Assembly: GCA_038087875.1 (NCBI GenBank)
Contig: CM075994.1
Coordinates: 124,001 to 188,000 of the forward strand
Reading direction: 5' to 3'
Length of the DNA: 64,000 nt
Origin: Malacoraja senta
Taxonomy: Eukaryota
The stretch's first letter is position 1; each line of letters opens with the position of its first letter. Shown piece after piece: positions 25,001-52,385 of the stretch. Below the pieces are notes generated by a model. The model made no database searches and was not told the origin of the DNA. It worked only from the letters and a program-made list of their open reading frames with translations. The position numbers were made by a program, and so were the translations under genes.

Positions 25001-25976
25001 TAAAAATTTCAAAAGAGAGTTGGGATAATCATTTATTACAGGTGCATAAATGCTCGATCAACGTACGACATACGCTTATCCAATTTAAAACATTACATAG
25101 ATTATATTATTCAAAAACCAAACTAAATAAAATCTTTCCTAACGTCTCACCAATCTGTGATAAATGTATATGTCAAGAAGCTACCATAGCACATTCTTTT
25201 GTTTTTTGTACAAAAATCCAAAAATTCTGGTTTGAAATATTTGATATTTTTTCAAAATTAATCAAAATAAAACTGGTACCAAAACCAGAATGGATTATTT
25301 TTGGAATATCGGAAGGTATTCCTGAATTAAACGTGTATCAGAAGAATTTACTCAATTATGGGCTAATAATGGGAAAAAAGCTTATACTTAAATTCTGGAA
25401 AAATGCGCCCACACCAACAATAAAAATGTGGACATCAAATATGTTGGAAACATTACATCTGGAAGAGATGAGATTCCTCCTAGTAGGCAAAGTAGACCAA
25501 TTTCAAAAGACGTGGTCTACGTTTTTGGACCTATTACAAGCATGAGGTGCAATAGTAATTTAGAAAAACAAATAAATAAATAAAAGGTATCTGGACCTGG
25601 TAATGGGAGGTAAAACAAAAACAGACTTGGTTGGTAGTTCCTTCTCTATGAAGTATGTTATAAGAGTTATAATAGAGCGATTGTTCCTTCTTTCTTTCTC
25701 TTTCTTTTCTAGGGTCTATTTTCTAACTTTACTTCCTTCTCTAACTTCTTTTCTAAGGGGCTTTCTTTTCCCAACACTCTTTTGCACTTCACAACCTTTG
25801 CGCACTTTCTTCACTTTTCTTACTTCTTTCTTTTTCTTTCTTAAAGTTTAAAAAAGTGAAGCGGTACAAAAAATGTATTAATATATACGTGTTGTACATT
25901 ACTGTAATCTACCGTACTTCTATTAAAAAAAATATTTTTAAAAAAAAAGTATATTAAAAAAAAAAGATAAAAATAA

Positions 25977-26011
<35 letters not shown>
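22069..26011 (+). mobile_element. L1 LINE, 5'-truncated within the endonuclease, with an uninterrupted ORF2 remainder and poly(A), inserted in the DIRS RT
   Basis: LVNIYAPN, GGDFN, SRIDY, SDH, PGPDGF, LDAEKAFD, RQGCSLSP, YADD and a CCHC-like C-terminus; stop at 25545; long A tail. Confidence 0.95.
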
Positions 26012-26014
<3 letters not shown>

Positions 26015-28269
26015 AGAAACCTCACCAGTTCTGCTTGAGCCTCTAGTTTCTCTTTAACTGAGAGGGTAAAGACCCTTTGGGGTACGTGCTGAACTGGTGG
26101 CATGTTTTCTTGAATGAACTCTATTTTGTATCCCAGAATACTGTTAAGTATATAACTATCATTCGTGAGAGACCTCCATGCTTCAATGAACAGGTGTAAT
26201 CTCCCCCCTGTTAGTACAGTCCTCCCACTTTTTATATGCTGGTAGGAACCAGACCCACCTACCTCCATAGTTATGGGAGTGCTCATTGCTTCTGTTTCTT
26301 CTTCCGCCGTTGTACTGCTGGATGTCCTGTTGGTTGGGGGTGGCGCATTTTCCATGGGGTCCGCTCTGGGCCCTGGCCTAAAAAAGGCTTTCGGGGATGG
26401 AATGCGGACCCCGAGCTTTCACCAGTCCTGAATGTTTGTCGTCGACTGGTGGACGCGGTGGGGTACTGCCGTCTGGGTTGTGTGGGTCTGCTCGTTCCGG
26501 GGCCTGCCCTCATGAGGCCAAATGCTTTGGCCTATTCCTCCAGGTCTTTTACTTGTTTTGTTAAGTCTTTCCCGAATAACAGGATCTGTGGCTCTGAGGC
26601 CGGTGTTTTACACAGTCCTGCATACCTGGGATTGAGGGCAGGTCTGATTATCTCCTTGCGGAGGTTGTTGATCTCGTATTGGGTGTTGCACAGCAGAGCC
26701 AGAGTGTCTTGCTGGTTTGTGGTCATATCCACCCCATCCACGGAACGAGCATAGGATGTTATCGCTGTTGTCAGGAGCTTGAGGATGCGTTGTAATTTTA
26801 TACTCTGTCCAACATACGCCCAGATTTGGCAGTTAACGGCCGGTACATTAAGCTAACTGCAGTTCTCCGGAGGCGAGTAGATTTCTAATGCCTCATTAAG
26901 TACCTGATCTTGTAGGGGTTTGAGGGACAGGTGGTTAATGCTGGCCGCCAGTTTTGTCTCCAATGGCCGCCCTGCTCGTGGTGTAGCCACGTAGCGATTC
27001 ACCACACCCAGCAGCTCTTCCTGGTCCTGTACCCCAAGCATACTCCCGATATCTTCAGCCAATGACCCCTGTTCCTGACCAGCCCAGTCCTGGTCGCCAA
27101 TGCTGCCCTCGGCTGAGGGGGAAGCAATGGCCAGTGCATTGTAAGGCACTGCTGTGGGAGTGCCTGAACCCCCTTTGCGAGACTGCTCCAGCTCCTGAAG
27201 CAAGTCTCGCTGGAGCAGTTGCTCCATGAGCCTTTCCATTCGGCTCAGGCGGCTACCCCTTCCGCTCTCAAGCGGAGCCTCCTCATCGGAGTCAGACATA
27301 ACCGGCCGGTCTGTTTTTTGTCTTGATTTGCCTCCAGCCCGCTGCTGCTCCTCAGGCTGCGCTAGCAGTACTGGGCTTGGTTCGGTCTCGATGAGGGTGG
27401 ACCGCAGCATGTGCGGTCCAGGTGCCGCCTCTCGCCCCCCACTGATGGGACCCTCCGGTTCTGTTGAAGTCGAACGGGGGGCGGTTTTCTTTGCTTGCCG
27501 TGCTTTACTCATTTTCCCAGTTTTACCTGGAATTACAGAGCAGAGGAAGCTTGCTATTACGACCTCAGAGTAAGTACTTACCTGATGGTCCGCTTTTTAA
27601 ACTTGTAGCGGGAGCGCCTTGTACTCCCGTTCGTCGCTGTTGCACTGCGTGAACGCTAATGTCGCGCATGCGTGCTGGACGGGCTCTTCACGTAGTCACT
27701 CACGTGACTCCGAAGTAAAATGTACAAGTAAAAGAAGGTCGGATGAATATCTTACTGTTTTTCTTCAACAATAAAGAACTATTAATCAAAAGACTGTGTT
27801 ATGAAGATTTATCTTTCGAGAAGCTTTGAGCTCGAAGGACATGGAGCTTGCATACGTATCAAAACGACATAATAATAATAATAATAATAATAGATTTTAT
27901 TTATATAGCGCTTTTCAGGCATCCTCCTCATAAAGCCATGTTTTCTCCCGAGTGGCTAGAGAGATAATGGAGTGATATCTTGAACGATATAATAATCTGC
28001 CACTACACTTAGGGTGAAGCTGTTTTCACAGTTTAGCTTGCCAGATAGTTCCAGGGTCTCATTCCAGCTGTGCTGAAGTTATAGCGAAGGGGACCAACAT
28101 TGCGACATCGTGAACTGGAGTGGAACGGAGAGATGGTGATGTTCCAATGTACCTGTCCCTCTTGTCCCAGTGAGTAGAGGGGCTTCATTTATTCAAGAAG
28201 TCGGTCCAAGCTGTGGGAATCAGAATATCAGTATTAACTAATGCTCAGGTTAAATGTACATGGCCTCAA

Positions 28270-30145
28270 TAAGTCATGGGAGCAGAATTAGGCCATTTGG
28301 CCCATTGAGTCTACTCCACCATTCTATCATGGCTGATCTATCTTTCCCTCCTAACTCCATTCTCCTGCCTTCTCCCTATAACCCCTGACACCATTATGAA
28401 TCAAGAATCTGTTAATATCCACCTTAAAACTACCCAATGACTTGGCCTCCAGTGCCATCTGTGGCAATGAATTCCACAGATTCACCACCCTCTCGCTAAA
28501 GAAATTCTTCCTCATCTCCTTTCTAAAGTTATATATGTCCTTTTATTCTGAGGTTATGCCCTCTGGTTCTAGACTCTTTCACTGGTGGAAACATCCTCTC
28601 CACATTCACTCCATCCAGGTCTTTCACTATTTGGTAAGTTTCAATGAGGTTTCCCCCTCGTCCTTCTAAACTCCAGCGAGTACAGGCCCAGTGCAGTTAA
28701 ACGTTTATCGTACGTTAACCCACTCATTCCTGGGATCATTCTCGAAAACCTCCTCTGGACCCTCTCCATTGCCATCACATCATTCCTCAGATATGGGACC
28801 CAAAACTGCTCACAATGCTCCAAGTCATAGGGTGGCCGCTGTGGCGCAGCTGTAGAGTTGCTGCCTTACAGTGCTTGCAGCGCCGGAGACCCGGGTTCGA
28901 TCCCGACTACGGGGGCTGCTGACTGTTAGGAGTTTAAGTACGTTCTCCCCGTGACCGCATGCATTTTCTCCGAGACCTTCACTTTCATCCTACAGACGTA
29001 CAAAGACGTACAGGTATGTAGGTTAATTGGTTGGAGTATGTGTAAATGATCCCTAGTGTGTATAGGATAGTGTTAATGTGCAGGGATCGCTGGTCGGTGT
29101 GGACTCGGTGGGTCGAAGGGCCTGTTTCTGCGCTGTATTTCTAAACTAAAAAAACTAAAAAGTGCGATCCGACCAGCGCCGTATAAAGCCTCAGCATTAC
29201 ATCTTTGTTTTTATATTCTCGTCCTCTCAAAATAAATGCTAACATTGCGCTTGCCTTCCTTACTACTGATTGAACTTGCAAATTACCCTTTTGGGAACTG
29301 CACCCGCACTCCCAAGTCCCTTTGCACCTTCGATTTCTGAATACAATCCCCATCTAGAAACAAGTCTGCGCCTTTATTTCCACCCCTAAATTGCATGACT
29401 GTACACATTGCTACACTGTTATCCATCTGTCTTCCAAAATGAGAGGCTCTGAATTCTGCACTCATTACTTGAAGGTCGAGTCACAGGTAGATAATGTGGT
29501 CAAAAAGGCTTTTGGCTCTTTGGCCTTCATCAGTCAGAGTATTGAGTATAGAAGTTGGGAGGTCATGTTGCAGTTGTATAAGACATTGGTGAGGCCGCAT
29601 TTAGAATATTGTGTTCAGATCTGGGTACCATGTCATAGGAAAAATATTGTCAAACTTGAAAGGGTTCAGAAAGGATTTAGGAGGATGTTATCAGGACGAG
29701 AGGGTGTGAGTTATAGGGAGAGGTGGAGTAGGCTGGGTCTCTATTCCATGGAGCGCAGGAGGATGAGGGGTGATCTTATGGAGGTGTATAAGATCATGAG
29801 AGGAATAGATCAGGTAGATGCACAGAGTCTTTTGCCCAGAGTAGGGAAATCGAGTACCAGCGGACATAGGTTCAAGGTGAAGGGGAAAAGATTTAATAGG
29901 AATCCGAGGGGTAACTTTTTCACACAAAGGATGGCGTGTGTATAGAACTAGCTGCCGGAGGTAGTTGAGGCTGGGACGATCCCATCGTTTAAGAAACAGT
30001 TAGACGGATAGGACAGGTTTGGAGGGATATGGACCAAGCGCAGGCAAGTAGGACTAGTGTAGCTGGGACAATATTGGCCGGTGTGGGCGAGTTGAGCCGA
30101 AGGGCCTATTTCCACACTGTATCGCTCTATAACTCTCTATGACTC
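28270..30145. mobile_element. Two CR1 3' fragments in opposite orientations (28270-29400 minus with a SINE inside; 29465-30145 plus)
   Basis: CR1 ORF2 C-terminal motifs and 3' UTRs. Confidence 0.85.
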
Positions 30146-30738
30146 CAAGATGCACATTTGAGCAGTGGAGTGAGGCAGTCCAAACACAGACAGATAGTAG
30201 AGAGTTAACAGTGCATCTCTCTCTAAACTGCAGATATTTCCCTGTGAATGAACTATTATGAATGAATACTTTATTGTCACAGTGAAATACTTTCCAAGGT
30301 ATGGAAATAGTCGCCGGAAAGGGCACTTACAAAGTATCGCACGCCACATCCCCCTTTGTTGTTCCCCCTCCCCCCACCTACACGGCAGTCCCCCCCATGC
30401 CGGGTCCTCCTTTGTTCTTCCACAGCCCCCCTCCCACCACCACCATGGCAGTCCCCCCACGCCGGCTCCTCCTTTGTTCCTTTCCTCGGCAACGGCGTCC
30501 TCACTTCCACGTGGTCCATCCTCGTCTGTCGGTCAGCGCCATCATCGCCGGCTGCACAGACCTCTCCACTATTGCTGCTGGGTCCTCTCCGGACGTCTCC
30601 GTGGCACCGCCTCATGCCCACTAAATGGCTATGACACTAAAGGGCCCTTCTGCCCCCATTGAAAAAATATTACAGTGATAGCACAGGAGAACGGATTATA
30701 CTTTGTTCCTGGGGACATGTGTAATATTTCTCCCTCAC

Positions 30739-30781
30739 CGATATCCAAACAGATTGCCACACAGCCATTTGCAGGATCTGA
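30739..30781 (-). CDS. Candidate small exon 5 of the Ig receptor; two AGs 4 nt apart give SDPANGCVAICLDI or ILQMAVWQSVWIS
   Basis: Non-repeat island with donor G|gtgagg but a weak acceptor; reading frame ambiguous. Confidence 0.25.
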
Positions 30782-31382
30782 CTGGTCACAATTGTTCATA
30801 AGTGATATGAGCAGAATTGTGCAGGAAGGAACTGCAGATGCTGGTTTACACTGGAGGCAATGCAAAATGCTGGAATAAGTCAGCAGGGCAGGCAGCATCA
30901 CTGGAGAGAAGGAATGGGTGACGTTTTGGGTCTGAAGAAGGGTCTCGACTCAAAATGTGACCATTTCCTTCTCTCCAGAGATGTTACCTGTCCTGCTGAG
31001 TTACTCCAGCTTTTTGCTTCTATCTTCAACACACACACACACACACAGACAGGCTTCGGTTTCCTTCACGTTTCGGATATGTTTCGGTTCGAGACCCTTC
31101 TTCTGAAGAACTCAATGGCCTGCAATGACCAGTATACCGCTGAGTTACTCCAGCATTTTGTGTCTATCGTAGGAGCAGAATTAGGTCATTCAGCCCAGCA
31201 AGCCTACTCTGCCATTCAATCAATCATTCCCTCTTAACGCCATTCTTCTGCCTTCTACCACTAACCCCTGACACCCGTACTAATGAAGAATCCATCTCTC
31301 TCTCCCTTAGATTCACCACCCTCTGACTGACTCCACACCACCACATACAAGGACATGGTTTTACCAGAGAATGAATACTCAC

Positions 31383-31477
31383 CATGTACAACAGAGCGCT
31401 AAACACGAGAACCGCTGTGATCACTAAGATAATGGCTGGGTACAATCCAACCCGAGATCTGGGATTGGGTTCATGAT
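31383..31477 (-). CDS. Ig receptor exon 4: stalk plus transmembrane helix DHEPNPRSRVGLYPAIILVITAVLVFSALLYM
   Basis: Acceptor ttattttgttgtag in phase 1, about 20 hydrophobic residues, strong donor ATG|gtgagt (phase 0). Confidence 0.8.
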
Positions 31478-32354
31478 CTACAACAAAATAAATCACCTTT
31501 GGTTACTTATTGTAGATTTTAATTTAAATGTCTATGACATATGGCATATGACCTTTGTATTCAATTCAATGATTCAGTGATATTATATTGTCACATATCA
31601 AGACACAATAAAGTTCTTTGATTTTGGTGTACAATCCGTAATCACACAGCAGACTTCTCCTGGGCAATACACAAAGAGTCGCCAAGTTTCTGCCACAGAC
31701 AATGTTTCAGAAGTTCTTAGTGCAGTCTTATCTTCTCGCAGCAGCAAACTAGGGCTGTTGTTGCAGGTGCATGGAGCACGATGCACGGTAGTGCAGCGGT
31801 AGAGTTGCTGCCTCACAGAGCATGCAGCGCTGGAGACCCGGGTTTGATCCTGACTACGGGTGCTGTCTTTATGGAGTTTGTATGTTCTCCCCATGCCTGC
31901 TTGGGTTTTCTCCGAGATCTTCAGTTACCTCCCACACTCGAAAGGCATACAGGTATGTATGTTAATTGGCTTGGTATAAGTGTAAATTGTCCCTAGTGTG
32001 TGTAGGATAGTGTTAATGTGCGGGGATCGCTGGTAGGTACGGACTCGGTGGGCAGAAGAGCCTGTTTCCACGCTGTATTTCTGAACCTAACTAAACTAAA
32101 CCAAACGTGGACAACCCGAGACTCGCAGAAAACCTGGGTCTCTGACGCTGTAAGTGCTGGAAGGCTGCAACTCTACCGCTGCGCTGCCATGCCGCCTTGT
32201 TGGACATTTGTTCCTATCTTGCTTCCCCACGATGCATTCTCTTGGGTTAAACAGATTAAAAACTACTTATCTTCCTTATAATTTTCAAAATTCCCTACAT
32301 CACGTCTGGAGAGATATTTATCCACAGGGAATACGGAATGTGAGATCATGTGAA

Positions 32355-33830
32355 TTATAGAAAAGATGTTGTCAAGCTGGAAAGGATATAGAGAAGATTT
32401 ACAAGGATGTTGACAGGGGTAGAGGGTCTGAGCTGTAGGGAGAGGGTGAGTAGGTTGTGACTCTATTCTTTGGAGAGCAGGAGGATGAGGGGTGATCTTA
32501 TAGAGGTGTATAAAATCATGAGAGGAATAGAGTCTCTTGCCCAGAATAAGTGAATCGTGGACCAGAGGACACAGGTTTAAGGTGAAGCGGAAAAGATTTA
32601 AGAGGAATCTGAATGGTAACTTTTTCACACAAAGGGTGGTGGGTGTATGGAACAAGCTGCCAGAGGAGGTAATTGAGGCAGGGGCTATCCCAACATTTAA
32701 GAGACAGTTGGACAGGTACATGGTAGAACAAGTTTGGAGGGATATGGAGCAAACGTAGGCAGGTGGGAAGAGTGTAGCTGGGACAGGTGGCCAAGTTGGG
32801 CCGAAGGGCCTGTTTCCACACTGTATCACTCTATGACTCTATGACACTAAGAATAAGATAGTCATCCATTTCAATCAGAATTTAGGGGGATGTTATATGT
32901 CTGGAGAGTACTTGGAGTGTAGAATGACATACGCTGATAAGGACAGATAACAAGTGTGGAGAGGGGCTCTTGTGTAGCATAAACATCAACATGGGACAAA
33001 TGGCCAGCATCTGTGCAATAGACCTTTACAACTTGGGTTGCACGATAGCGCAGTGGTTGAGTTGCTGCCTTCCAGTGCCAGAGACTCTGAGTTCAGTCAT
33101 GACTACGGGTCCTTGTCTGCACGGAGTTTGTACGTTCTCCCAGTGACCTGCGTGGGTTTTATCTCACACTCTAAAGACGTGGAGGTCTGTGGGTTAATTG
33201 ACTTTGGTATAAATGTAAATTGTCCCTCGTGTGCAGGATAGTGTTAGTGTGCGGGGATCCCTGGTTGGTACCGACTCGGTGGACAGAAGCACATGTTTCC
33301 GTGTTGTATCTCTGTATTTAGGGGAGGAATCTGCCTACAGACAGGAAGTGTCACAGCTGGCATCCTGGTGCCATCGCAACAACCTAGAGCTCAATGCTCC
33401 AGAGCTCAATGCTCTTTGGCTGCAACCTTCCCTCCATTGATGAATTGTACACTGCAAGGGCCAGGAAGCGAGCGGGCAAGATCATCTCTGACCCCTCTCA
33501 CCCTGGCCACAAACTCTTTGAATCACTTCCCTCTGGAAGGCGACTCCGGACTGTCAAAGCTGCCACAGCCAGACATAAAAACAGTTTTTATCAACGAGTA
33601 GTTGCTCTACTCAATAGCCAAAAATCTGTAGCCTCCCTTTGATCTGGAATTTTGTTGGTTCACATGTTGATCAATGGTGTTTTATCATTAATGTTTTATT
33701 ATTATTAATGTTTAGTGTTTTCTGAGTCATTTGTAACTGTCACTGTATGTCATGTTGTTACTTATGGGCGGAGCACCAAAGCAAATTCATTGTATGTGAA
33801 TACTTGGCCAATAAACGTACTTACTTATAA
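32355..33830 (+). mobile_element. CR1 3' end (32355-32845), a SINE, and a Rex1 3' fragment (33315-33830)
   Basis: FFTQRVVGVWN; DPSHPGH..LPSGRR. Confidence 0.8.
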
Positions 33831-34411
33831 ACTAAACTAGAAGTTAAACACACTAGGGAGAACGGAGTGATATCTTATGCTGATAAAGTCAGATAACAAG
33901 CGTGGGGAGGAGATATTTAGTTTTATTTAGTTTGGTTTCGATCTACAGCGCAGAAACAGCCCATTGAGTTTGCACATACAACCGATTCCTGCTCATTAAC
34001 ACCATCCTACACATGGAATCTATTTGTTTAATGTTGATACCAAGCCAATTAACCAACAAACATGTACATCTTGAGTGTAGGAGGAAACCCATGCAGGTCA
34101 CAGGGTGAACTTATAAACTCCATACACATGTTTAAGGAACGTCTTTCCCCTGACTCTCAGTCTGAAGTGTCTCGACCTGAAACGTCAATATTCTTTTTCT
34201 CCAGAGATGCTGTCTGACCGGCTGAGTTATTCCAGCTTTCTATGTTTATCCTGTATTATTTAATACGGCTCGTAGCCAGGATCGAACCTGAGTCTCTGAC
34301 GCCGTACGAGCTGTGAGGCAGCAACTCTACCACTGCACCACTGTGCCACTTCTTGTGTAGCATAAACAATGTGGGTCAAATAGACCTTTGCCAATACCGT
34401 GACAGACTTAC

Positions 34412-34681
34412 CATCGTTGACCAGCTGGCAGGTGCTGTTGGTTCGACTGACTTGGTTTTCCATGCTGCACGTGTAACAGCCAGAGTCTGATTTCTCTGCG
34501 TTCCAAATGGTAAATGTTACATTCCCATCAGACAGGGACTGCCATAGGCTCACTGGGAGGACAACTCCTTCTCTGCTCCACAGAATGGAAGTAGCTCTCC
34601 CTCTCTGCACCGTGCAGTTCAGCACAGCCGTGTGGTTCTCAGGGTTGTAATCACAGGAGATGGATGGTGTGGAGAGAGGAT
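34412..34681 (-). CDS. Ig receptor exon 3: C2-set domain DPLSTPSISCDYNPENHTAVLNCTVQRG...ILWSREG...DSGCYTCSMENQVSRTNSTCQLVND
   Basis: 270-nt open phase 1-1 exon, acceptor ttgttctccag and donor G|gtaag. Canonical C-W-DSGxYxCxxxNxVS pattern, extra cysteines, and N-glycosylation sequons NHT, NCT, NVT, NST. Confidence 0.9.
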
Positions 34682-35224
34682 CTGGAGAACAACAGAGTCA
34701 ATGAGTCAAGACACAAACGCCCTTTTTTAGACCTCAAGTATACAAAGGTAAATCCAGATTTATTAAAGGGATCTAATAGAGTCACTGCCTCAAAAAGGCA
34801 GCCAGCATCATCAGAGACCCACACCACCCTGGCCACGCTCCTTTGCCTTTTGAGGAGGTAGAGGTGTTGGCCTGCTTTCTTGGCCATTGCTGCGATATGG
34901 GTGGTCCTGGACGAGACACTGGTGATATTTACTCCTCCGAACTTAACATTTTCAACCATCTCTACTTCGGCCCCATAATTGCATACTGGGGTATGTGAAC
35001 CGCTTCCTTTCTGAACTCCATCACTACCTCAAAGGTTGTTGTCTTGATACCAGGTCACGAGGTCCTCACCCCCATCTCTCTTACACCCCATTGAGGTCTA
35101 TGCTCTCTAGGTTAGGTGGACACTTCTCAAACATATCCCACAATATAAAGATTCACATTTCTCATCCACCATCCGCCATCTGCCTGATTATATACCACCA
35201 GGATATATAATCAGCTGATAATAC

Positions 35225-35980
35225 CACCAGGGGCGCCGCATGATTGGCAGCCTCACCAACAGTCTGTCTGTTTTTTCATTTTTCTTTGTGTTATTTTTAG
35301 TGTGTTTTAAAGTTTGTGTAAATGTTCTCCGGTTTGTTTTATGTGGGGGTTGGGGGGAATTGTTTTTCAGTCTCTTACCTCGCCAGAGATGCGATTATTT
35401 TCCGGGTTGTATCTCCGGTCGCTCTGCAGCCTAACATCATGAAGCTGGAGGCCTCGCTCGGGACTGATTATGGACTCTACCGCGGGGCGTGGACTTACCA
35501 TCGGAGCCGATCCTGGGATTGCCTGGGATTATATTGCCTGGGATCGATGCTCCAACCGCGCTTGCGGACTTTAACATCAAGGGCTCGCAGTCTCCGGAGA
35601 GACCGAGTCAGGAGCTCCAACGACGCAGAAAGTTCATCAGACCCAACCCGGGGTCCGATCGTTTGGTGCGGGGGAGCTGATATCCCCCCGATACAGGAGC
35701 TTGATCACCCCGACGAGTAAGATCGTCCCGTCAACAGAAGGCTCGAGGCTCCCAACCACGGGAGAACAAGGGAAGAATGAAAGAGATTGAACTTTTTTTT
35801 TCCGCCTTCCATCACAGTGAGGAATATGGAGGAGTCACTGTGGTGGATGTTTAGGTTAAAATGTATTTTGTGTGTTCTATTGCTTTTTATTTGTATGGCT
35901 GACTTGGCAAATGAAATTCCTCATATGTTGCAAAACATACTAGGCTAATAAAGTATTATTATATTATTGTATTGTATATT
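35225..35980 (+). mobile_element. GC-rich non-coding retroelement, family copy A. Relatives at 49713-50688(-), 51440-52185(-), 58995-59650(+), and a 3' part at 17170-17340(+)
   Basis: Shared layout, two conserved hairpins, LINE-like 3' tails, no ORF. Confidence 0.7.
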
Positions 35981-36789
35981 ATTTTCATGTCCATTAATTA
36001 CATTCCATTGACTCGATCTACACCACGCTGCCTCGGCAAGGCCACCAGCATCTTCAAAGACGAGTCTAACCCTGGACACTCCTTCTCACATCAGAAATGA
36101 TACACAGAATTGTGAAACACCTATCTCCAGATTCAGGGACAGTTTCTTCCCACATGTTATCAAGCAACTGAACCATCCTATCACCATCTAGAGTGGTCCT
36201 GAGCTACCATCGACCCTCAAACTGTCTTTATTCAGACTTTACTAGACATTATCTTGCACTAAATGTTATTCAATTTATCCTGTAAGTGTACACTGCAGAC
36301 AGCTTGATTGTAATCATGTATAGTCTTTTGGCTGACTGGATAACATGCAACAAAAAGCTTTTCACTGTACCTCGGTACATATGACAATAAACTAAACTAA
36401 AGTAAACTAAACTTCACAAATCAATGTTTCTAGGTTTGCTCATTGTCAGATTTAGGGATTACATCATATAAACTTAAATTGCAATTATTAAAATGTGTTC
36501 AAGAACATAGTAATCCCAGCAGGTTAGTCATCTAAAATTGGAGAACACAATGTTCATACATTAGCTTGTAAGCTCCTGTCAAGTCCAATAATCAACCTTT
36601 CACGCTGCCACTTAGGTATCTTAGAACCCAATGGTATGAACATTAAATTCTCCAATTTCAAGTAATAACCCCCCTACCTACCTCCCCCTTCCCTGTGACA
36701 CCCCCCCCCCCTCACCCCAGTACATGCCCATTTCACCCAGTAACTCCCATCCTCCCAGTCACCGTAATCTCCTCGTTGACACCCCATAT

Positions 36790-37580
36790 CCCCCCAAACC
36801 TGTCCTATCCATGTACCTAATTGTTTCTTAAATGTTGCAATAGCCCCAGCCTAAACTACTTCCTCCGGAATCTCATTCCATACCCCTACCAGCCTTTGTG
36901 TGAAAAAGTTACTCTTCAAACTTCTATTAAATCTTTCCCCTTTCACGTTAAACCAATGCCCTCTGGTTATCGATTCCCCCACTTTGGGCAAGAGACTGTG
37001 TGTCCATCCGATCTACTCATTTCATGATTTTATACACCTCCATAAGATCACCCCTCCTCCTGTACTCCAAGGAATAGAGTTCCAGCTGCTCAACCTCTCC
37101 CTAAGGCTCATATCCTCGAGTGTTGGCAACATTCTCGTAGAACCTCTCTGTACCCTTTCCAACTTGACAACATCTTTCCTGTAACATGGTGCCCAGAACT
37201 GAACACAATAGTCTAAATGCAGCCTCACCAATGCAACATGACCTCCCAACTTCTATACTCAATACTCTGACTGTTAAAGGCAAAATGTGCCAAAAGCCTT
37301 TTTGACCACCTTATCAATCAGTGACTCCACCTTCAACAAACTATGTACCTGCTCTCCTAGATTTCTCTGCTGTACAATACTCCCCAGAGCCCTACCATTC
37401 ACCGTGTAGGTCCTGCCCATGTTAAACCTTCCTAAATGCAACAACTCACAAGTCTCTGTGGTAAATTCCATCAACCATTCCTCAGCCGACCTGGCCAACC
37501 GATCAAGATCCTGTTGCCATTTTTGACATCCATCTTCACTATCTGCAAAACCACCCACCTTTGTATCCTTCGCAAACTTG
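36790..37580 (-). mobile_element. CR1 LINE fragment
   Basis: LVRLHLDYCVQFWAP; degenerate KFA.DTK. Confidence 0.85.
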
Positions 37581-38745
37581 CAAAGTCTATTCACTTATTT
37601 GGCTTAACAAAATTTTTACAAAGGCCTGTGGATATGGCTGCCTTCAATATGTGTAGAATGCATAAATAGTGGGGACCATCTTAATGATAAAATCCTTAGT
37701 ACAGAGTAATTTAGTGACCTGTTCAAAAAGAAAATCCTCACCTGCGCTTCCTACCATGGAGTAGAAAAGGTCAAATAAATATTGCAGATAGACACAAAGT
37801 GCTGGAATGACTCAGCGGGTCAGACAGCATCTCTACCGGGATCTTCTCTCCTCTCCCATCGGGAAAAAGGTATAGAAGTGTGAAAACGCACACCTCCAGA
37901 TTCAGGGACAGTTTATACCCAGCTGTTATCAGGCAACTGAACCATCCTACCACAACAAGAGAGCAGTCCTGAACCACTATCTACGTCGTGGTAACCCTCG
38001 GACTACCTCTAATCGGACTTTACTGGCTTTACCTTACACTAAACATTATTCCCTTATCATGTATCTGTACACTGTGGATCGCTGGATTGTAATTAAGTAT
38101 TGTCTTTCCACTGACTGGTTAGCATGCAACAAAAGATTTTCACTGTACCTCAGTACACGTGACAATAAACTAAACTGAACTGAACTGGATGCTGAGTTGG
38201 TGTGAGGAAAGAGGGCAAAATTGAGAGTGGGAATGCGTGATGGGGAAAAAGCAAGGCATACCCACAGATATTTGGGATCAAGCACAAACATTTATTACAT
38301 TGTGTTTTATGTCACATACAACATTGCTTCAGATCAGCGGTAGAGCCACAGCTTTACAGCGCCAGAGACCCGGGTTTGATCTTGACTACCGGTGCTTGTT
38401 TTCCCCGTGACCTGCACGTTCTCCACGTGACCTGCGTGGGTTTTCTCAGAGATCTTCGGTTTCTTCCCACATCCCAGAGACGTACAGGTTTGTAGGTGAT
38501 TTGTTTTGGCATGAATGTAAAATTGTCCCTAGTGTGTGCAGGGTAATGTTAATGGGATCACTGGTCGGTGTGGACTCGGTGGGTCAAAGTGCCTGTTTCT
38601 ATGATGTATCTCTGAACTAAACTCAACTTACAGTAATTGAGCTTCAAGGCAATTAATACAGGAAAAGAAATCATGCTTGGAAAATGTCGACTCAGCACAC
38701 TGTCACCATCTCATTTAAATAATTACAAATTCTCTGGCTACTTAC

Positions 38746-39042
38746 CAATGACTTCAAGAGTTAGAATTCTGGTCCTCTGTGGGTCTAGGTCCACCGTCAT
38801 TTTATAGTGGCCACTGTCTGCTTTACGTACATCTTTTAATTGAAAGGATCCATCTGATATGTTAACTTTAATTCGATTCTTGTACTTTTCATATATGATA
38901 TTTCTTTCATGCACATTGGTAATGGGGAGATTCCTGCTGGAATCTGAGAAGTCCCAGTTCAAATTGTTGAATTCCTTATCAGTTCCCGGGAATGGAATGG
39001 AGGAGCCTGTGGCAGCCAGCTTGCTGTCTCTTGTCCACTGAG
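38746..39042 (-). CDS. Ig receptor exon 2: cysteine-less V-set domain AQWTRDSKLAATGSSIPFPG...LNWDF...YKNRIKVNISDGSFQLKDVRKADSGHYKMTV...LTLEVI
   Basis: 297-nt open phase 1-1 exon, acceptor ttgtcttgcag and donor G|gtaag. V-set motifs present (C-strand W, R-I, LxxVxxxDSGxY) with no Cys, as in CD2/CEACAM N-domains. Confidence 0.9.
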
Positions 39043-39084
39043 CTGCAAGACAAATGAATTAATTCAAACAGTATCACACCTGAG

Positions 39085-39325
39085 ATATGTAGGAAGGAAC
39101 TGCAGATGCTGGTTTAAACCAAAGATTTACACAAAAAGCTGGAGTAACTTAGTGAGTCAGACAGCATCTCTGGAGAAAAGGAATAGGTGACATTTCGGGT
39201 TGAGACCCTTCTTCAGACTCCTGAAGACTCCAGAGTCTGAAGAAGGGTCTAGACCCGAAACGTTACCTGTTCCTTTTCCCCAGAGATGCAGTCTGAGCCG
39301 TTGAGTTACTCCAGGTTTTTGTGCC
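39085..39325. ncRNA. Palindromic Penelope pLTR pair with a minimal hammerhead motif on each strand
   Basis: CTGAAGA-A-GGGTCTAGACCC-GAAACGT at 39237-39263 (+) and its inverted copy at 39188-39217 (-). Confidence 0.65.
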
Positions 39326-41329
39326 ACATCTGAGATAGATGAACACACACACATAGATGTTCAGTGTTTACCTTAGCTACCACACAGTACTAATAGTAAA
39401 GAAAGTGTATAGTATGCTTCCCCATTGGTTGGGGCATTGAGTATAAGAGTCATGAAGTCAGCTTGCAGCTTTATAAAACCATTGTTAGGCCACATTTGGA
39501 GTATTGCATGTAGTTCTAGTCACACCTTGTACAGGAAGACGAGATTGGACAAACTTGGATTATTTTCTATGGTACATCAGAGGTTGATGAGAGACCTGAT
39601 TGAAGTATCTAAAATAGTGAGAGGCATTGATAGGTTAGACAATCAGAACCCTTTTCCCCCAGGTGGAAATGTCAAAGACTAGAGGACATAGCTTTAAGGT
39701 GAGGGGGGGACAAAGTTTAAAAGAGATGTGTGGGGCATGGTTTTTGACAACAACCTATCCCTCAGAGTCAACAAGACAAAAGAGCTAGTTATTGACTTCA
39801 GGAAGTACATGCCCAATCAGCTACAAGACAATCAATTAATTTAAACAGTATCACACCTGAGATATGTAGGAAGGAACTGCAGATGCTGGTTTAAACCGAA
39901 GATTGACACAAAATGCTGGAGTAACTCAGCGAGTCAGACAGAATCTCTTGCGAAACGGAATAGGTGACATTTCGGGTCGAGACCCTTCTTCAGACTTCTG
40001 AAGACTCCAGAGTCGGAAGAAGGGTTTCAACCCGAAACGTCACCTATTCCTGAGTACATGCCCAATCAGCATCAATGGTGCTGAAGTGGAAATGGTTGAA
40101 ACTTCATCTTCCTAGGTGTAAAGGGCAGCAGGATGGCACAGTGGTAGATTTGCTGCTTTACAGTGCCAGAGACCCGGGTACGATCCTGACTATGGATGCT
40201 GTCTGTACGGCGCATGTACATTCTCCCCATGGGTTTTCTCCAAGAACTTCAGTTTCCCCTCACACTCCAAAGACTTACAGGTTTGTAGGTTAATTGGCTT
40301 GATATAAATGTAAATTGTCTCTAGTTTGTGTCGGAAAGTGTTAATGCGAGGGGATCGCTGGTTGGCGTGGACTCGGTGGGCCGAAGGGCCTGTTTCCGTG
40401 CTGTATCTCTAAACTAAACTAAAACTAAATATCTCCACCAATTTTTCCTGGACTAACCAACCACATTGAAGATTGTAGATTTTGATTAAAATGAAAATGA
40501 AAGTTGAAGATGGAAGAACAAAGTAGCACATCATCACCTCCACTTCTTCAAGAGACAAAGGACACGTTCAGTCTATCTCCAATAACTCTTATCAATGTCT
40601 ACAGATGCACAGTATAAAGCATACTATCAGGTACAAATTAGTCATCGGCAGCTGAGGGAATACCTGATAGAAGTTTGTAAAATTGTGAAAGGCATACAGT
40701 GCCCTCCATAATGTTTGAGACAAAGTCACATTATTTATTTATTTGCCTCTGTACTTCACAATTTGAGATTTGTAATAGAAAAATCACATGTGGTTAAAGT
40801 GCATATTGTCAGATTTTAATAAAGGCCATTTTTATACATATTGGTTTCAACATGTAGAAATTACAGCAGTGTTTATACATATTTCATTGTATAAATCAGT
40901 GGTTAAAGTGCATATTGTCAGATTTTAAGGGCACCATAATGTTTGATACACAGCAATGCAGGGCCCTCACTTAACTTTTTTTCCCTGTTGCCAGTCGGGC
41001 AACCTCGGCAGGTTTTTAGGTTGCCAAATGACAGTTTAGGTGGTAATTTAAGACGGCTTGCATGATGCGTGAAATAATGTGCTCGGACGAAGTGCGTAGT
41101 TACCAGTCGGAATTATGGTCAATGAAGCAATCACATATTATTTCTGCTTCAAATAAATTCACAAACTAAACATATTCACCAATCAAGACATGATCTATAC
41201 CACAATGACATGCAGTAAAATTAAAATACAGTATCTCATCTCTTTTTACACGTGCAATTAATGCAATGCTATTATTTCTTTCCACTTCCAAACAAAAATC
41301 TGGTTGGATTATTCAGCGTTTGATCAACC

Positions 41330-41765
41330 TTGGTGAGACCAAGTGCAGGCTTGGCGATCGCTTCGCATAACACCTCCATTCAGTTCGCCATAACCAACCT
41401 GATCTCCCGGTGGCTCAGCACTTCAACTCCCCATCCCATTCCGAATCCGACCTTTCTGTCCTGGGCCTCTTCCATGGCCAGAGTGAGGCCCACCATAAAT
41501 TGGAGAAGCAGCACCTCATATTTTGCTTGGGTAGTTTACACCCCAGCGGTATTAACCTCCAATTTCAAGTAGTCCCTGCTTTCTCCTCCACATCCCAGCT
41601 CTCCCTCAGCCCTCTGCCTCCGCCTCTTCCTTTCTTCTTCCCGCTCGCCCCCCCCCACCTCACATCAGTCTGAAGAAGGGTCTCGACCCGAAACATCGCC
41701 TATTCTCTTTGCTCCATAGATGCTGCCTCACCCGCTGAGTTTCTCCAGCATTTTTGTCTACCCAT
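41330..41765 (+). mobile_element. Penelope-like fragment with a hammerhead motif at 41670-41697
   Basis: GETK.RLGDRF / VAQHFNS..HS GIY-YIG region followed by a pLTR. Confidence 0.85.
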
Positions 41766-42478
41766 TCACACAAGTTCTGTTATCCCACTTTCCTCACCCA
41801 CTCCCGACACATTCGGGGCAATTTTACAGAGACAAGTTAACCTACAAAGCCAATGCGTCTTTGGGATGTGGGAGGAAACCCACACGCTTGCAGGGAGAAT
41901 GTGCAAATTCAACACAGACAGTGCCTGAGGACAGGATCGAACACAGATCTCTGGCGTGTGAGGCAGCAAGTCCACCAGCTGTGCCACTATATTTTATTTT
42001 CCAACACACACAAAATTATACGTTGATATCTTTGGTTACAAAAAAAAAGAAACTATCCATTTTCAGTCTTAAATATCTAAGTGACGCTATGTCCCCCCTT
42101 TACAGCTACTATATGTTTTAATTCAGTTCAAGACTATGGGGCAGTACATTGGCCATAAAGTTGCTGCCTGAAATTGCCAGAGACTCAGAATTGATCCTGA
42201 ATATCGGTGCTGTCCGTATGGAGTTTGCTCCTTTTCCCTTTGATCGCATGGGTTTTCTCCGGGTGCTCTTGTTTCCTTCCACATTACAAAGGTGTGCAGG
42301 AACCTTTTTCAGACCCAACCCAAAACGTAATATTTTCTTTTTGTCCAGAGATTCTGTCCGACCTGTTGATTTACTCCAGCTTTTTGTGTCAATCTTCAGT
42401 TTAAACCAGCATCTGCAGTTCCTTCCTACATACACAATACTATTCGATAGAACTTTATTAATCCCAGGAGGGAAATTG

Positions 42479-42509
<31 letters not shown>

Positions 42510-42511
42510 CC

Positions 42512-42645
<134 letters not shown>

Positions 42646-44784
42646 TATATAGTTACATATTCATATATAAGTACTATGTTTACATATTCTGTTGTGCTGC
42701 TGATAGTAAGGATTCCGTTGTTCTAACTGGGACACGAGAGAATAAAACTCTTGACTTATGTCGGTAATGTGTGGGATAGAACTAGTGTACGGGTGGTCGG
42801 CGCGGACTCGGTGGGCCCAAGGGCCTGTTTCCACGCTATATCTTTAAATTAAACTAAAAACACTAACACCAGAGGAAATCTAAAGAAAGGTCTCTACCCG
42901 AAACGTCACCCAATTTCTTCTATCCAGAGTTGCTGGCTGCTCCATGGAGTTCCCCCGCACAATTAAAGCATGGAATAGTCTTCACCCTACTATAGTCACC
43001 CAACCAGACGCAACTAAATTTAAGGTCGCTCTTGTTTCCCCCAAGAACCCTTTTTTGCTTTAGTCCAAGTCAAGAGTCAAGAGAGTTTTGTTGTCATGTA
43101 TCCCAGATAGGACAATGAAATTCTTGCTTGCTGCAGCACAACAGAATATGTAAACATAATACAGAACAGGAGATAAAAGTCCAGTGTGTTTATATACCAT
43201 AGACCATATATATACACAATAAATAAACAGATAAAGTGCAATAGGCTGTTATTTTTCAGTGTTTGGAGTTTGGTGGTGGTGGGTCCATGACAGTTTAAAT
43301 TCCATTTGGAATATTTTTGGATAACCAGGAAACCAAGAAGCAAGAGTTACTCCAGGGAGTTACTCCAGCTCCAGGGAGTGATTCTGCGTTGGTTTTCAGC
43401 GGTCGCGGCGAGGCGGCAACCGGACAGCAATGGTGGCCAGATCTCCCACAATGCAAAGGGAGGGAGAAAGTGCCCAACGCCGACCAGTTGCCGTGGCAGT
43501 GCGCATGTGCAGGGGCGGCACATGCGCACAACCACGGTCGATGATGTGCTGGCCGTGGTTGTGCGCATGTGCAGGGGAGGATGTGCAGGCCGTGGCAGTG
43601 CGCATGTGCAAGGCGGCCGGCCGTGCCGGCGGATGAGAAGCGAGCGGAGAGCGGACACCCGGACAGGGATACGGATGGCGTGCAGAGACGGAGAGTGACA
43701 GACAAGAGAGATAGAGAGGGGGACCCGCTCAGAATTAAACGATAGGTGTCCTGGGTGCTTGCCAAGCCGGGCAATATTACACGAGTTTTATGTTGCCCGG
43801 CAGGATGTTAGGTCGCCATTGGCACCCGGGCAACCGCTAACTTCGAGCCCTGCAATGCCATGAAAATGAAAGTAGTCATGTTCAGTATTTTGTTGCATAC
43901 CCTTTGCCTGCAATGACTGCTTGAAGTCTGCGATTCATGGACATCACCAGTTGCTGGGTCTCTTCTCTGCTGATGCTCTGTCGGGCCTGTATTGCAGCCA
44001 TCTTCAGCTTATGCTTGTTTTGGGGGCTTGTCCCCTTCAGCATATAACAGGCATGCTCAATTGGGTTCAGATCGAGTGATTGACTTGGCCACTCAAGAAT
44101 TGACCATATTTAAGCTTTGAAGAACTCCTTTGATGCCTTAACAGTATTTTTCTTTAATAGAGAAAATTCTTCTGTCATCAGCTGTGGAGTCTTCCTTGGC
44201 CTGCCAGCCCTTTGTGATTAGTAAGCTCACCAGTGCTCGCTTTCTCTTATGATGTTCCAAACTGTGGATTTTGGGAAGCCTAAGGTTTGGCTGATGTCTC
44301 TGACAGTTTTATTCTTGTTTCTCAGTCTCATAATGGCTTCTTTGACTTTCATTGGCACAACTCTGGTCCTCATGTTGATAAACAGCATAAAAGTTTCCAA
44401 AGGTGATGGAAAGACTAGAGGAAAGACTAGGTGCTGAGAGCTCTCTTACACCTGCATTAAGGAGGCATTTGAACACACCTGAGCTATTACAAACACCTGT
44501 GAAACCATGTGTCCCAAACATTATGCTGCCCTGAAATGGGGGGACTATGTATAAACACAGCTGTAATTTCTACATGGTGAAAGCAAAATGTATTAAAAAA
44601 CATTTAAATAAAATCTGATAATGTGCACTTTAACCACATGTGATTTTTTTCTATTACAAATCTCAAATTGTAGAGTACAGAGGCAAATAATAAATGATGG
44701 GTCTTTGTCCCACACATTATGGAGGACACTGTAAGTAGACAGACAGAACCTTTATTCCTAGGGTGCAAATGTCAAAGACGAGTA

Positions 44785-45385
44785 AACATGACTGGTCCAG
44801 GAACGCTGAGGCCCTGTACAAGAATGGACAGAGCCGGCTGTACTTTTTGAGAAGTCTCTGCTCCTTCAACGTCTGCACTAACATGCTGCGGATGTTATAC
44901 AAATTGGTGGTGGCCAGTGCCATCTTCTTTGCTGCCATATGCTGGGCCAGCAGGGCAAGGCCACGGACGCCAACAGGTTTAACAAGCTCATCAGGAAGGC
45001 TGGCTCCATCCTGGGCATGGAGGTGGATTCATGGATGAGGTCTTGGAGGGAAGGATGCTCCTCAAACTGTGAAGCATCTTGGACAATACAGCTCATCCTC
45101 TCCATGACACACTGGGCAACCTGAGGAGCACCTTCAGCAACAGACAGGTTCACCAAGATACAGTACAGAATGCCACAGGAGATCCTTCTTTCCTGTGGCT
45201 ATCAAACTGTACAACTCTTCCCCCTTCTGTCGTGAGCTAGACTGACTCTCCCTCCACCCCCAATCTTTCCACATCCCCAATCCTTTCCACTTCACCTTAA
45301 TTTCATGTTTCATGTATCTTGTGTTTTATGACTGTTGGCAGATCAATTTCCCTCCTGGGATAAATAAAGATCTATCGTATCGTAT
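44785..45385 (+). mobile_element. Rex1/Babar LINE 3' fragment; a related copy at 59645-60140(-)
   Basis: GQSRLYFLR.L.SFNVC..ML...Y..VVASAIFFA. Confidence 0.85.
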
Positions 45386-45622
45386 CGCAGAGGACTGAGT
45401 GTGAAGGGCAGATGGGGAAAGTTTCACGAAGAAAGGATTAGTTTAATTTGGGATCATGTTTGACACAGACATCAGGCCCTAACATCAAGGACCTGTTCCT
45501 ATGCTCTACTGTTCAATTTAGAATTATATTTCTGCAAATGCATTTTCTTTTTTCCCAACTTGAACAGTCTTGAGCCAGATTGCAGTCACCGCCTGCTTAC
45601 AGAGACTCAGAAGTAATTTTAC

Positions 45623-45683
45623 CTGAAACTCTGTTGCTGAGAAGTTGCAGAAGGCAGAGGATAGAACAGCCGAAGGTCATCAT
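45623..45683 (-). CDS. Ig-superfamily receptor (CD2/SLAM/CEACAM-like), exon 1: signal peptide MMTFGCSILCLLQLLSNRVS
   Basis: ATG at 45683, 20 codons of leader-like hydrophobic sequence, then a phase-1 donor (TCAG|GTAAA) matching the phase of the V exon. Confidence 0.75.
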
Positions 45684-45811
45684 TATGTAGAGGAGCTGGT
45701 GCTGTCAGCTTATTCAAATAACGGAATTGGTCACGAAGGTAGCCTGGTAACTTCATCTGAGAACTGAGAGAAGGAAAAGGAGCAATATATCATACATAGC
45801 ACACATTATAA

Positions 45812-46544: not shown

Positions 46545-49213
46545 CATCTCTCTCCCCCCTTCTCCCCTCCCTCTCCCTCTCCCCTCTTTCCCCCCTCTCC
46601 CCTCTTTCCCCCCCCTCCCCTCCTTCCCCCCCCCTCCTTCCCTCCCCCCCCCTCCTCTTTCCCTCCCCCCCTCCTCTTTCCCTCCCCCCCCTCCTCTTTC
46701 CCTCCCCCCCCTCCTCTTTCCCTCCCCCCCCTCCTCTTTCCCTCCCCCCCCTCCTCTTTCCCTCCCCCCCCTCCTCTTTCCCTCCCCCCCCTCCTCTTTC
46801 CCTACCCCCCCCTCCTCTTTCCCTCCCCCCCCTCCTCTTTCCCTCCCCCCCCTCCTCTTTCCCTCCCCCCCCTCCTCTTTCCTCCCCCCCCTCCTCTTTC
46901 CCTCCCCCCCCTCCTCTTTCCCTCCCCCCCCTCCTCTTTCCCTCCCCCCCTCCTCTTTCCCTCCCCCCCTCCTCTTTCCCTCCCCCCCTCCTCTTTCCCT
47001 CCCCCCCCTCCTCTTTCCCTCCCCCCCCTCCTCTTTCCCTCCCCCCCCTCCTCTTTCCCTCCCCCCCTCCTCTTTCCCTCCCCCCCCTCCTCTTTCCCTC
47101 CCCCACCCTCCTCTTTCCCCCCCCCCCGCCTCCTCTTTCCCCCCCCCCCCCTCCTCTTTCCCCCCCCCCCTCCTCTTTCCCCCCCCCCCTCCTCTTTCCC
47201 CCCCCCCCCTCCTCTTTCCCCCCCCCCTCCTCTTTCCCCCCCCCCTCCTCTTTCCCCCCCCTCCTCCTCTTCCCCCCCCTCCTCCTCTTTCCCCCCCCTC
47301 CTCCTCTTTCCCCCCCCTCCTCCTCTTTCCCCCCCCCTCCTCCTCTTTCCCCCCCCCTCCTCCTCTTTCCCCCCCCCTCCTCCTCTTTCCCCCCCCTCCT
47401 CCTCTTTCCCCCCCCTCCTCCTCTTTCCCCCCCCCTCCTCCTCTTCCCCCCCCCTCCTCCTCTTTCCCCCCCCCTCCTCCTCTTTCCCCCCCCCCTCCTC
47501 CTCTTTCCCCCCCCCTCCTCCTCTCTTCCCCCCCCCTCCTCCTCTTTCCCCCCCCCTCCTCCTCTTTCCCCCCCCTCCTCCTCTTTCCCCCCCCCTCCTC
47601 CTCTTTCCCCCCCCCTCCTCCTCTTTCCCCCCCCCTCCTCCTCTTTCCCCCCCCTCCTCCTCTTTCCCCCCCCCTCCTCCTCTTTCCCCCCCCCTCCTCC
47701 TCTTTCCCCCCCCCTCCTCCTCTTTCCCCCCCCCTCCTCCTCTTTCCCCCCCCCCTCCTCTTTCCCCCCCCCTCCTCCTCTTCCCCCCCCTCCTCCTCTT
47801 TCCCCCCCCCTCCTCCTCTTTCCCCCCCCTCCTCCTCTTTCCCCCCCCCTCCTCCTCTTTCCCCCCCCCCTCCTCCTCTTCCCCCCCCCTCCTCCTCTTT
47901 CCCCCCCCCTCCTCCTCTTTCCCCCCCCCCTCCTCCTCTTTTCCCCCCCCCTCCTCCTCTTTCCCCCCCCCTCCTCCTCTTTCCCCCCCCCTCCTCCTCT
48001 TTCCCCCCCCCCTCCTCCTCTTTCCCCCCCCCTCCTCCTCTTTCCCCCCCCTCCTCCTCTTTCCCCCCCCCCTCCTCCTCTTCCCCCCCCCTCCTCCTCT
48101 TTCCCCCCCCCTCCTCCTCTTTCCCCCCCCCTCCTCCTCTTTCCCCCCCCCTCCTCCTCTTTCCCCCCCCCTCCTCCTCTTTCCCCCCCCCTCCTCCTCT
48201 TTTCCCCCCCCCTCCTCCTCTTTTCCCCCCCCCTCCTCCTCTCTTTCCCCCCCCTCCTCCTCTTTCCCCCCCTCTTTTCCCCCCCCTCTTTTCCCCCCCT
48301 CTTTCCCCCCCCTCTTTCCCCCCCTCTTTCCCCCCCCTCTTTCCCCCCCTCTTTCCCCCCCCCTCTTTCCCCCCCCTCTTCCCCCCCCCTCTTCCCCCCC
48401 CTCTTCCCCCCCCTCTTCCCCCCCCTCTTCCCCCCCCTCTTCCCCCCCCTCTTCCCCCCCCTCTTCCCCCCCCTCTTCCCCCCCCTCTTCCCCCCCCTCT
48501 TCCCCCCCCTCTTCCCCCCCTCTTCCCCCCCCTCTTCCCCCCCCTCTTCCCCCCTCTTCCCCCCCCTCTTCCCCCCCCTCTTCCCCCCCCTCTTCCCCCC
48601 CCTCTTCCCCCCCCTCTTCCCCCCCCTCTTCCCCCCCCTCTTCCCCCCCCTCTTCCCCCCCCTCTTCCCCCCCCTCTTCCCCCCCCTCTTCCCCCCCCTC
48701 TTCCCCCCCCTCTTCCCCCCCCTCTTCCCCCCCCTCTTCCCCCCCTCTTCCCCCCCCCTCTTCCCCCCCCCTCCTCTTCCCCCCCCTCCTCTTCCCCCCC
48801 CTCCTCTTCCCCCCCCTCCTCTTCCCCCCCCTCCTCTTCCCCCCCCCTCCTCTTCCCCCCCCTCCTCTTCCCCCCCCATCCTCTTCCCCCCCCTCCTCTT
48901 CCCCCCCCTCCTCTTCCCCCCCCTCCTCTTCCCCCCCCCTCCTCTTCCCCCCCCTCCTCTCCCCCCCTCCTCTTCCCCCCCCCTCCTCTTCCCCCCCTCC
49001 TCTTCCCCCCCCTCCTCTTCCCCCCCCTCCTCTTCCCCCCCCTCCTCTTCCCCCCCCTCCTCTTCCCCCCCCTCCTCTCCCCCCCTCTCTTCCCCCCCTC
49101 CTCTTCCCCCCCCCTCTTCCCCCCTCCTCTTCCCCCCCCCTCCTCTTCCCCCCCTCTCTACCCCCCCCTCCTCTTTCCCCCCCCCTCTGCCCCTCTCCCC
49201 CCCCCTCCCTTTT
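46545..49213 (+). repeat. 2.7-kb homopyrimidine (C/T) minisatellite with successive unit types, lying between CR1 minus-strand pieces (46100-46545 and 49240-49530)
   Basis: Almost no purines on the plus strand; units of about 20, 21, 12 and 15 bp. Confidence 0.95.
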
Positions 49214-52185: not shown

Positions 52186-52385
52186 NNNNNNNNNNNNNNN
52201 NNNNNNNNNNNNNNNNNNNNNNNNNNNNNNNNNNNNNNNNNNNNNNNNNNNNNNNNNNNNNNNNNNNNNNNNNNNNNNNNNNNNNNNNNNNNNNNNNNNN
52301 NNNNNNNNNNNNNNNNNNNNNNNNNNNNNNNNNNNNNNNNNNNNNNNNNNNNNNNNNNNNNNNNNNNNNNNNNNNNNNNNNNNNN
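52186..52385. other. Assembly gap (200 N)
   Basis: Seen directly. Confidence 1.

Follow-up and report, generated by a model that had tools for sequence, protein, structure and literature searches.

A predicted V-C2 immunoglobulin surface protein without a signalling tail in the skate Malacoraja senta, and its elasmobranch relatives

HEPACAM begins with an immunoglobulin (Ig) V domain that lacks cysteines, followed by a C2 domain, one more Ig domain and a tail of considerable length. Among other small Ig proteins, CD48 (SLAMF2) is held by a glycosylphosphatidylinositol (GPI) anchor and has no tail, and the SLAM receptors signal (PMC4718992); CD58 (LFA-3) occurs both in a GPI form and in a form with a 12-residue tail (PMC8218816), and in zebrafish Cd58 is long-tailed and lies in a defined synteny block (PMC5990624). 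CD58 and CD48 have been placed among mammal-restricted groups (PMC13262535), and one little-skate expressed sequence tag (EST) has been called a CEA homolog by BLAST (PMC4079198). Our search of the literature for CD2, CD48, CD58 or SLAM in cartilaginous fish, which left most subscription journals outside its coverage, found no paper describing such a gene. The subject of this study is a V-C2 gene in 64,000 nucleotides of the Malacoraja senta genome (assembly GCA_038087875.1, contig CM075994.1, positions 124,001 to 188,000), a stretch referred to as the window, in which all coordinates are counted from its first letter.

As read from the sequence, the gene is real and intact, and its predicted product is a small two-domain cell-surface glycoprotein of 246 residues, consisting of a signal peptide, a Cys-less IgV domain, an IgC2 domain and a C-terminal hydrophobic anchor. 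We hold it to be somewhat probable that this is a tail-less ligand or adhesion protein of an elasmobranch family inside the CD2/CD48/CD58-CEACAM-HEPACAM group, likely CD48/CD58-like in its action. The gene is more than 17 kb long, its introns are rich in repeats, and its parts are as follows.

45684..45763, minus strand: 5' untranslated stretch that exon 1 probably includes, predicted from sequence only
45623..45683, minus strand: exon 1, the first coding exon, 61 nt coding; ATG and 20-residue signal peptide, phase 1 donor, in agreement with the relatives' leaders
38746..39042, minus strand: exon 2, 297 nt, phase 1; Cys-less IgV domain with one N-glycosylation motif
34412..34681, minus strand: exon 3, 270 nt, phase 1; IgC2/I-type domain with four N-glycosylation motifs
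31383..31477, minus strand: exon 4, 95 nt, phase 0; short basic stalk and hydrophobic anchor
28193..28210, minus strand: coding part of exon 5; five uncharged residues and TGA
27896..28192, minus strand: 3' untranslated region, with a candidate AATAAA at 27901-27896 and a predicted end; a relative's contig matches 28010-28212

The splice sites are canonical, with GT donors in exons 1-4 and AG acceptors in exons 2-4, and when 17 relatives were compared with the window by tblastn, single database proteins matched all four of these exons in order. Four sequencing runs from relatives, whose RNA origin is only guessed, were compared with positions 27700-39300 only (exon 1 lies outside) at 85% likeness; 24 contig pieces were among the matches listed, and in one 929-nt contig (X11) exon 2 is joined straight to exon 3. 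Since single proteins match the four exons in order and a relative's contig joins two of them, the exon set is not due to chance. Exon 2 is one codon shorter than in related skates, which appears as a 3-letter gap when a relative's contig is aligned. Close relatives of the M. senta gene are expressed: the closest protein cluster has 32 members, 15 of them listed, and 10 of the 12 listed Logan members are full proteins of 249-250 residues whose contigs measure 0.9-1.4 kb. With a gene of more than 17 kb, contigs this short must be spliced. A first-pass annotation of the window had proposed four in-frame exons of 61, 297, 270 and 95 nt in phases 1, 1, 1 and 0, encoding a V domain without cysteine and a C2 domain with five. 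Coordinates, splice sites and database proteins agree with that structure, and both cysteine counts hold in translated exons 2 and 3; the exons were correct as assembled, but a fifth, terminal exon from 28210, outside the span then described, had been missed. At the other end of the gene, a polypyrimidine tract with two AG acceptors (45764 and 45757) precedes the probable 5' untranslated part, and an out-of-frame ATG (45756-45754, minus strand) lies just past the second of these, its frame overlapping the main start codon. No non-coding exon farther upstream was located.

Exon 5 was found by tblastn, in which the C-terminal portion of a protein from little skate aligned to 28223-28047. Its acceptor AG is at 28212-28211, and the match of a relative's contig (X1) begins at 28212, preceded by 117 letters of different sequence. 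Relatives enter this exon in phase 1, and the NCBI isoforms P0022 and P0023 omit the anchor exon and join C2 to exon 5 in frame; in M. senta, skipping of exon 4 would yield a secreted (soluble) form of 217 residues. The M. senta exon 4, which we infer to lack one base relative to its counterpart in most copies of related skates, ends in phase 0, and exon 5 is therefore read in another frame, giving five uncharged residues and a stop, so that the C-terminus of the product is an uncharged run of 28 residues reaching the end of the protein. This shifted end is not an assembly slip, because the C-terminus of an annotated copy from thorny skate (P0016/P0039) is read in that frame too. The alternative frame, that of the relatives, holds eight further codons and then a stop, and neither frame is predicted to encode a signalling tail. 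More tail exons beyond exon 5 are ruled out by the stop and the AATAAA downstream, and P0010 and P0013 owe their long tails, it seems, to faulty gene models, since these tails match repeats found at other places in the window. The last exon (28210-27880, minus strand) is open for about 50 codons in the softnose-skate (P0037) and little-skate (P0017) models, whereas a stop soon interrupts it in other skates. With AATAAA and an ATT run at its end, it may come from the 3' end of an old long interspersed nuclear element (LINE), a likeness that we presume.

The ends of the family were compared in 27 rows, isoforms included. Four to five basic residues follow the hydrophobic segment in bamboo sharks, horn shark and sawshark and in one gene of sevengill; some shark members carry a basic tail of 13-57 residues, one containing a tyrosine, and in two skate models the tail is roughly 50 residues long. 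A strict rule of tailed sharks and tail-less rays is broken by three other shark proteins, whose tails run only 2-3 residues past the anchor. In stingrays, mantas and sawfish a weak segment is interrupted by Arg and the protein ends five residues on, a C-terminus that reads like a GPI signal, and skate copies end in different frames. Stalk and anchor carry the motif R-x-R-[YF]-G-L-[IF]-P and shark tails begin RKP or RRP, both of which, we assume, resemble human CD58. The M. senta copy itself has a strong hydrophobic segment and a basic spacer, features that would suit a GPI anchor. Applying the small-residue rule for GPI attachment sites (PMC2064130), we read no clean site in this copy and a good one only in the manta copies. 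Because the segment is strong but a clean small-residue site is lacking, a tail-less membrane helix and a GPI anchor appear about equally probable for M. senta, the helix being perhaps the likelier of the two.

The gene had at first been taken for a receptor or co-receptor, and a signalling immune receptor of the CD2/SLAM type would fit the V-C2 architecture, the likeness of V to the CD2 family, and the basic or longer tails of some sharks and of the two skate models. However, the M. senta copy stops five residues into exon 5 and has no charged residue within its anchor that could serve an adaptor, and no immunoreceptor tyrosine-based switch or activation motif (ITSM, ITAM) and no CD2-type proline motif was found when the C-terminal 90 residues of 33 proteins were scanned. 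A pattern like the corresponding inhibitory motif (ITIM) gave seven matches in these 33 proteins, five in the ectodomain, one in an anchor and one in a predicted long skate tail. With no tail, no tyrosine or proline motif and no charged anchor residue, signalling of the SLAM-receptor type is therefore not predicted, and for the M. senta copy this reading is very improbable and largely refuted. ITSM and proline-rich tail are likewise absent from CD48, SLAMF8/9 and CD58.

Instead, the M. senta protein would be a non-signalling surface ligand, as are CD48 and CD58. Its V domain would bind a counter-receptor on another cell, probably by the GFCC'C'' face, and any signal would come from the partner; the protein would presumably be present on immune cells. 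The C-C'-C'' strands are the face used by CD2 and CD58 (PMC5990624), and it is there that eight skate sequences vary most, at 21 of 28 positions; the remainder of V varies at 27 of 70 (p 0.0016) and C2 at 32 of 88 (p 0.0004). These sequences are related by descent, and the strand boundaries were set after the alignment had been viewed. All 14 invariant V columns are retained in the M. senta copy. Prediction of a V-domain homodimer scored 0.29 against a mark of 0.32.

In Pfam, the C2 exon matched ig (E 4.5e-11) and the V exon matched V-set below the cut-off (E 0.0019). V is without cysteine in M. senta and in 22 of 24 relatives, which is not diagnostic of CD2/SLAM, since CEACAM and HEPACAM share this trait. 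The C2 cysteines are at residues 129, 142, 188, 191 and 204; the canonical pair is kept (Cys142 in 22/24 and Cys191 in 24/24 relatives), while Cys129, Cys188 and Cys204 are retained in only 9, 1 and 3 of the 24. Because only the canonical pair is conserved, five cysteines are a trait of the M. senta copy, and the earlier use of the extra ones as a family mark does not hold. Cys129 and Cys204 are positioned in the A and G strands, and Cys129 is present in each of the three relatives that carry Cys204, two of them congeners (p 0.04), a co-occurrence that would fit an optional A-G strand disulfide like that of CD2. The C2 domain of CD2 has such a second disulfide, and zebrafish Cd58 has only one (PMC5990624).

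The evidence for a CD48/CD58-like protein lies in V. With the single V sequence the best single domain in PDB was CD48 (21.7 bits), and with an 11-sequence V profile CD48 reached 36.7 bits against 23.1 for JAML, 19.9 for CD58 and 17.7 for CEACAM15. The structure model of V (predicted local distance difference test, pLDDT, 86) matched by fold nectin-1 (Z 14.8), CD58 (14.6; root mean square deviation 1.6 Å over 91 aligned residues), JAML (14.3), 2B4 (14.2), CD48 (14.0) and CEACAM15 (12.2), and Foldseek returned a mixed list; modelling both domains of a relative together gave low confidence (pLDDT 64) and uninformative fold matches (PD-L1, JAML and antibody light chains). CD48 resembles the M. 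senta protein in its Cys-less V and C2 domains, a length of about 245 residues and the lack of a cytoplasmic tail, besides being the best V sequence match; it differs in that the C2 of the M. senta family is CEACAM-A-like, with extra cysteines that are not conserved. CD58 gives the lowest deviation of any V match and is similar in its short-tail or GPI anchoring after one hydrophobic exon, although its V score by sequence is low.

Several results weigh against this reading. By V fold, nectin-1 and JAML tie with CD58, 2B4 and CD48. The best PDB matches of C2 are the A domains of CEA (33.3 bits) and CEACAM1 (29.8 bits), and no CD2/SLAM chain is found in the best 60 of 146 C2 matches. Atlas features of a little-skate relative (90%/86% identical) fall with generic Ig, Ly-9/SLAMF-like and HEPACAM-like clusters at 0.94-0.96, of which the Ly-9/SLAMF-like ones speak for the CD48/CD58-like reading and the HEPACAM-like one, at 0.95, against it. 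Our trees, which are unrooted, built from V and C2 only, and compared with CEACAM-like rows that were named automatically, contain no CD2, CD48, CD58, SLAM or HEPACAM sequence; the nearest relatives outside the family are multi-pass proteins rather than named CD48 or CD58 genes; and the want of a clean GPI site counts on the same side. V and C2 disagree on the nearest known family, V appearing closer to CD48 and C2 to the CEACAM A domains; support for the CD2/SLAM architecture claimed in the first-pass annotation comes from V rather than from C2.

The C2 matches raise the possibility of a divergent CEACAM (N and A domains) for epithelial or leukocyte adhesion or as a pathogen decoy, in which a GPI anchor replaced a transmembrane one, as happened in CEACAMs of primates and pig; this we consider improbable. 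A whole-protein profile also puts CEA and CEACAM1 first, in a search that favours long multi-domain chains, but the CEACAM matches reach only the last third of V; a search of 50% representatives was similarly dominated by long multi-Ig proteins. The salt-bridge Arg and Asp of CEACAM V domains (PMC4079198) are retained as R56 and D75, invariant in 11 sequences, and since the pair is general to V sets it says little for CEACAM. Repeated origin of GPI anchors from truncated ones is known for CEACAMs (PMC13212111). The N-A molecules (CEACAM1, 5, 6 and 8, and pig CEACAM60) thus share with the M. senta family a Cys-less V with the Arg-Asp pair, an A-type C2 with one disulfide, tandem copies and anchors changed by small alterations; they differ in their poor V match and in having B domains, of which there are none here. 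In addition, the family splits from shark and teleost CEACAM-like rows with a Shimodaira-Hasegawa-like approximate likelihood ratio test (SH-aLRT) value of 99 in 22 of 43 rows, long branches being among those omitted, though with only 83/55 when all 43 rows are used. The shark CEACAM-like genes are multi-domain, and in zebra shark and electric ray the family member is on a contig of another length (31.9 and 376 Mb) than the CEACAM-like genes (19.0 and 258 Mb).

The V search listed 16 of 77 candidates and the C2 search 12 of 84, with best identities of 91% and 90%, and every named match among those listed is a skate, ray or shark protein; to close skate relatives on short transcript-like contigs the per-domain identity is 86-91% at best. 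Among the best 52 of 5222 matches of a profile search, 26 are elasmobranch members of the family and 25 come from birds, the remaining one being a CEACAM-like protein of a shark. In the 43-row tree the M. senta V+C2 falls inside a skate clade (100/100), itself inside a ray clade (100/99), on a terminal branch of 0.05, similar to its neighbours. These comparisons indicate that the family spans rays and sharks and is already in databases under inconsistent names, the M. senta gene being a further member. The earlier proposal of a lineage-specific adhesion-type gene agrees with an elasmobranch-specific V-C2 family whose V is nearest the CD2/CD48/CD58 group. The description of the gene as unnamed is true of the M. 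senta copy, but relatives carry automatic NCBI names (CD48-, CEACAM-, HEPACAM-, A33-, JAM-A- or PSG-like); likewise, the suggested cluster finds a parallel in thorny skate, a stingray and sawfish, where a single contig carries two copies or more (their accessions being consecutive in thorny skate and the stingray), but tblastn detects one copy only within the window. The little-skate EST is possibly, though not necessarily, a member. Duplicated-domain members occur in stingray, sawshark and little skate (P0005, P0006, P0007, P0008 and P0040, arranged V-V-V-C2, V-V-C2 or V-C2-V-C2), and would stem from exons that were duplicated, as in SLAMF3, or else from gene models that were fused.

That the M. 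senta copy is a decaying, possibly silent duplicate under relaxed selection seems quite improbable. Its exon 4 phase is unlike that of most skate copies, a V codon has been lost, Cys188 is all but private to it, and its exact copy was found in no sequencing run, the best share being 0.19 among the runs listed. On the other hand, the frame is open, none of the invariant V columns has changed, the end branch is similar to those of its neighbours, and the shifted end is shared with the thorny-skate copy.

The multi-pass relatives are uncharacterised Ig proteins of sharks (P0199, P0107 and P0164) and birds (P0215, P0216, P0221, P0227, P0230, P0235 and P0248). Against the V+C2 profile, shark P0164 and P0199 score 149-158 bits and the bird proteins 113-143, compared with 85 for the best CEACAM-like row, and the profile-profile probability between the family and these proteins is 100 across the ectodomain. 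Full-length members have a Cys-less V, a C2 and four to five hydrophobic segments, where the M. senta protein has one, together with an invariant extra C2 cysteine (KSDCG) and a conserved Gly-Cys ahead of the last segment. This pattern recalls what we take to be the long-range disulfide of CD47, and Pfam and Atlas searches of the multi-pass region gave no match to the CD47 membrane domain. The M. senta family could accordingly be read as a separate lineage, either a one-anchor offshoot of these shark and bird proteins or a non-immune, HEPACAM-like homophilic adhesion protein, which we judge unlikely. Such a reading draws on the scores above, on the occurrence of family and multi-pass genes on same-sized contigs in horn shark and catshark, and on the HEPACAM-like name given automatically to many relatives. 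HEPACAM and HEPACAM2 are alike in the Cys-less V and C2 and in the Atlas cluster, and unlike in domain count and tail. However, the M. senta anchor fails to align with the first multi-pass segment, the bird members are also automatically named SLAMF8- or CD48-like, and a separate lineage is compatible with the CD48/CD58-like reading.

A more far-reaching form of the CD48/CD58-like reading, which is tentative and which we doubt, would see in the family an unrecognised equivalent of CD58/CD48 in cartilaginous fish, and so the ligand of CD2 in the earliest T-cell synapse, with a basic-tailed membrane anchor in some sharks that became GPI-linked or tail-less in rays and skates. Its sister would be the undescribed shark-to-bird V-C2 proteins, which would cross the membrane with five segments and link Ig domain to loop by a disulfide as in CD47. 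If the family is such a counterpart, the CD2-ligand adhesion axis would date to the jawed-vertebrate ancestor and the protein would be a reagent target for elasmobranch T-cell work. At the least, the present analysis corrects a family named five ways in NCBI and draws attention to a multi-pass Ig family, so far uncharacterised, that sharks and birds share.

No other host gene was found in 137 of the window's 196 open reading frames, chosen outside the gene span and scanned for domains; apart from one short match to ALKBH8_N, all domains detected were of retroelement type. An uninterrupted LINE-like frame of 1231 codons, with endonuclease and reverse transcriptase, lies at 21850-25545 (plus strand), with poly(A) at 25956-26012, and is apparently inserted in a broken minus-strand tyrosine-recombinase retrotransposon at about 17870-27600. 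A second LINE-like endonuclease/reverse transcriptase region, at 6918-10042 (plus strand), is split into three frames. Upstream of the gene are a 200-base assembly gap (52186-52385) and a 2.6-kb C/T minisatellite at 46575-49209, with a period of 20 and 138 copies.

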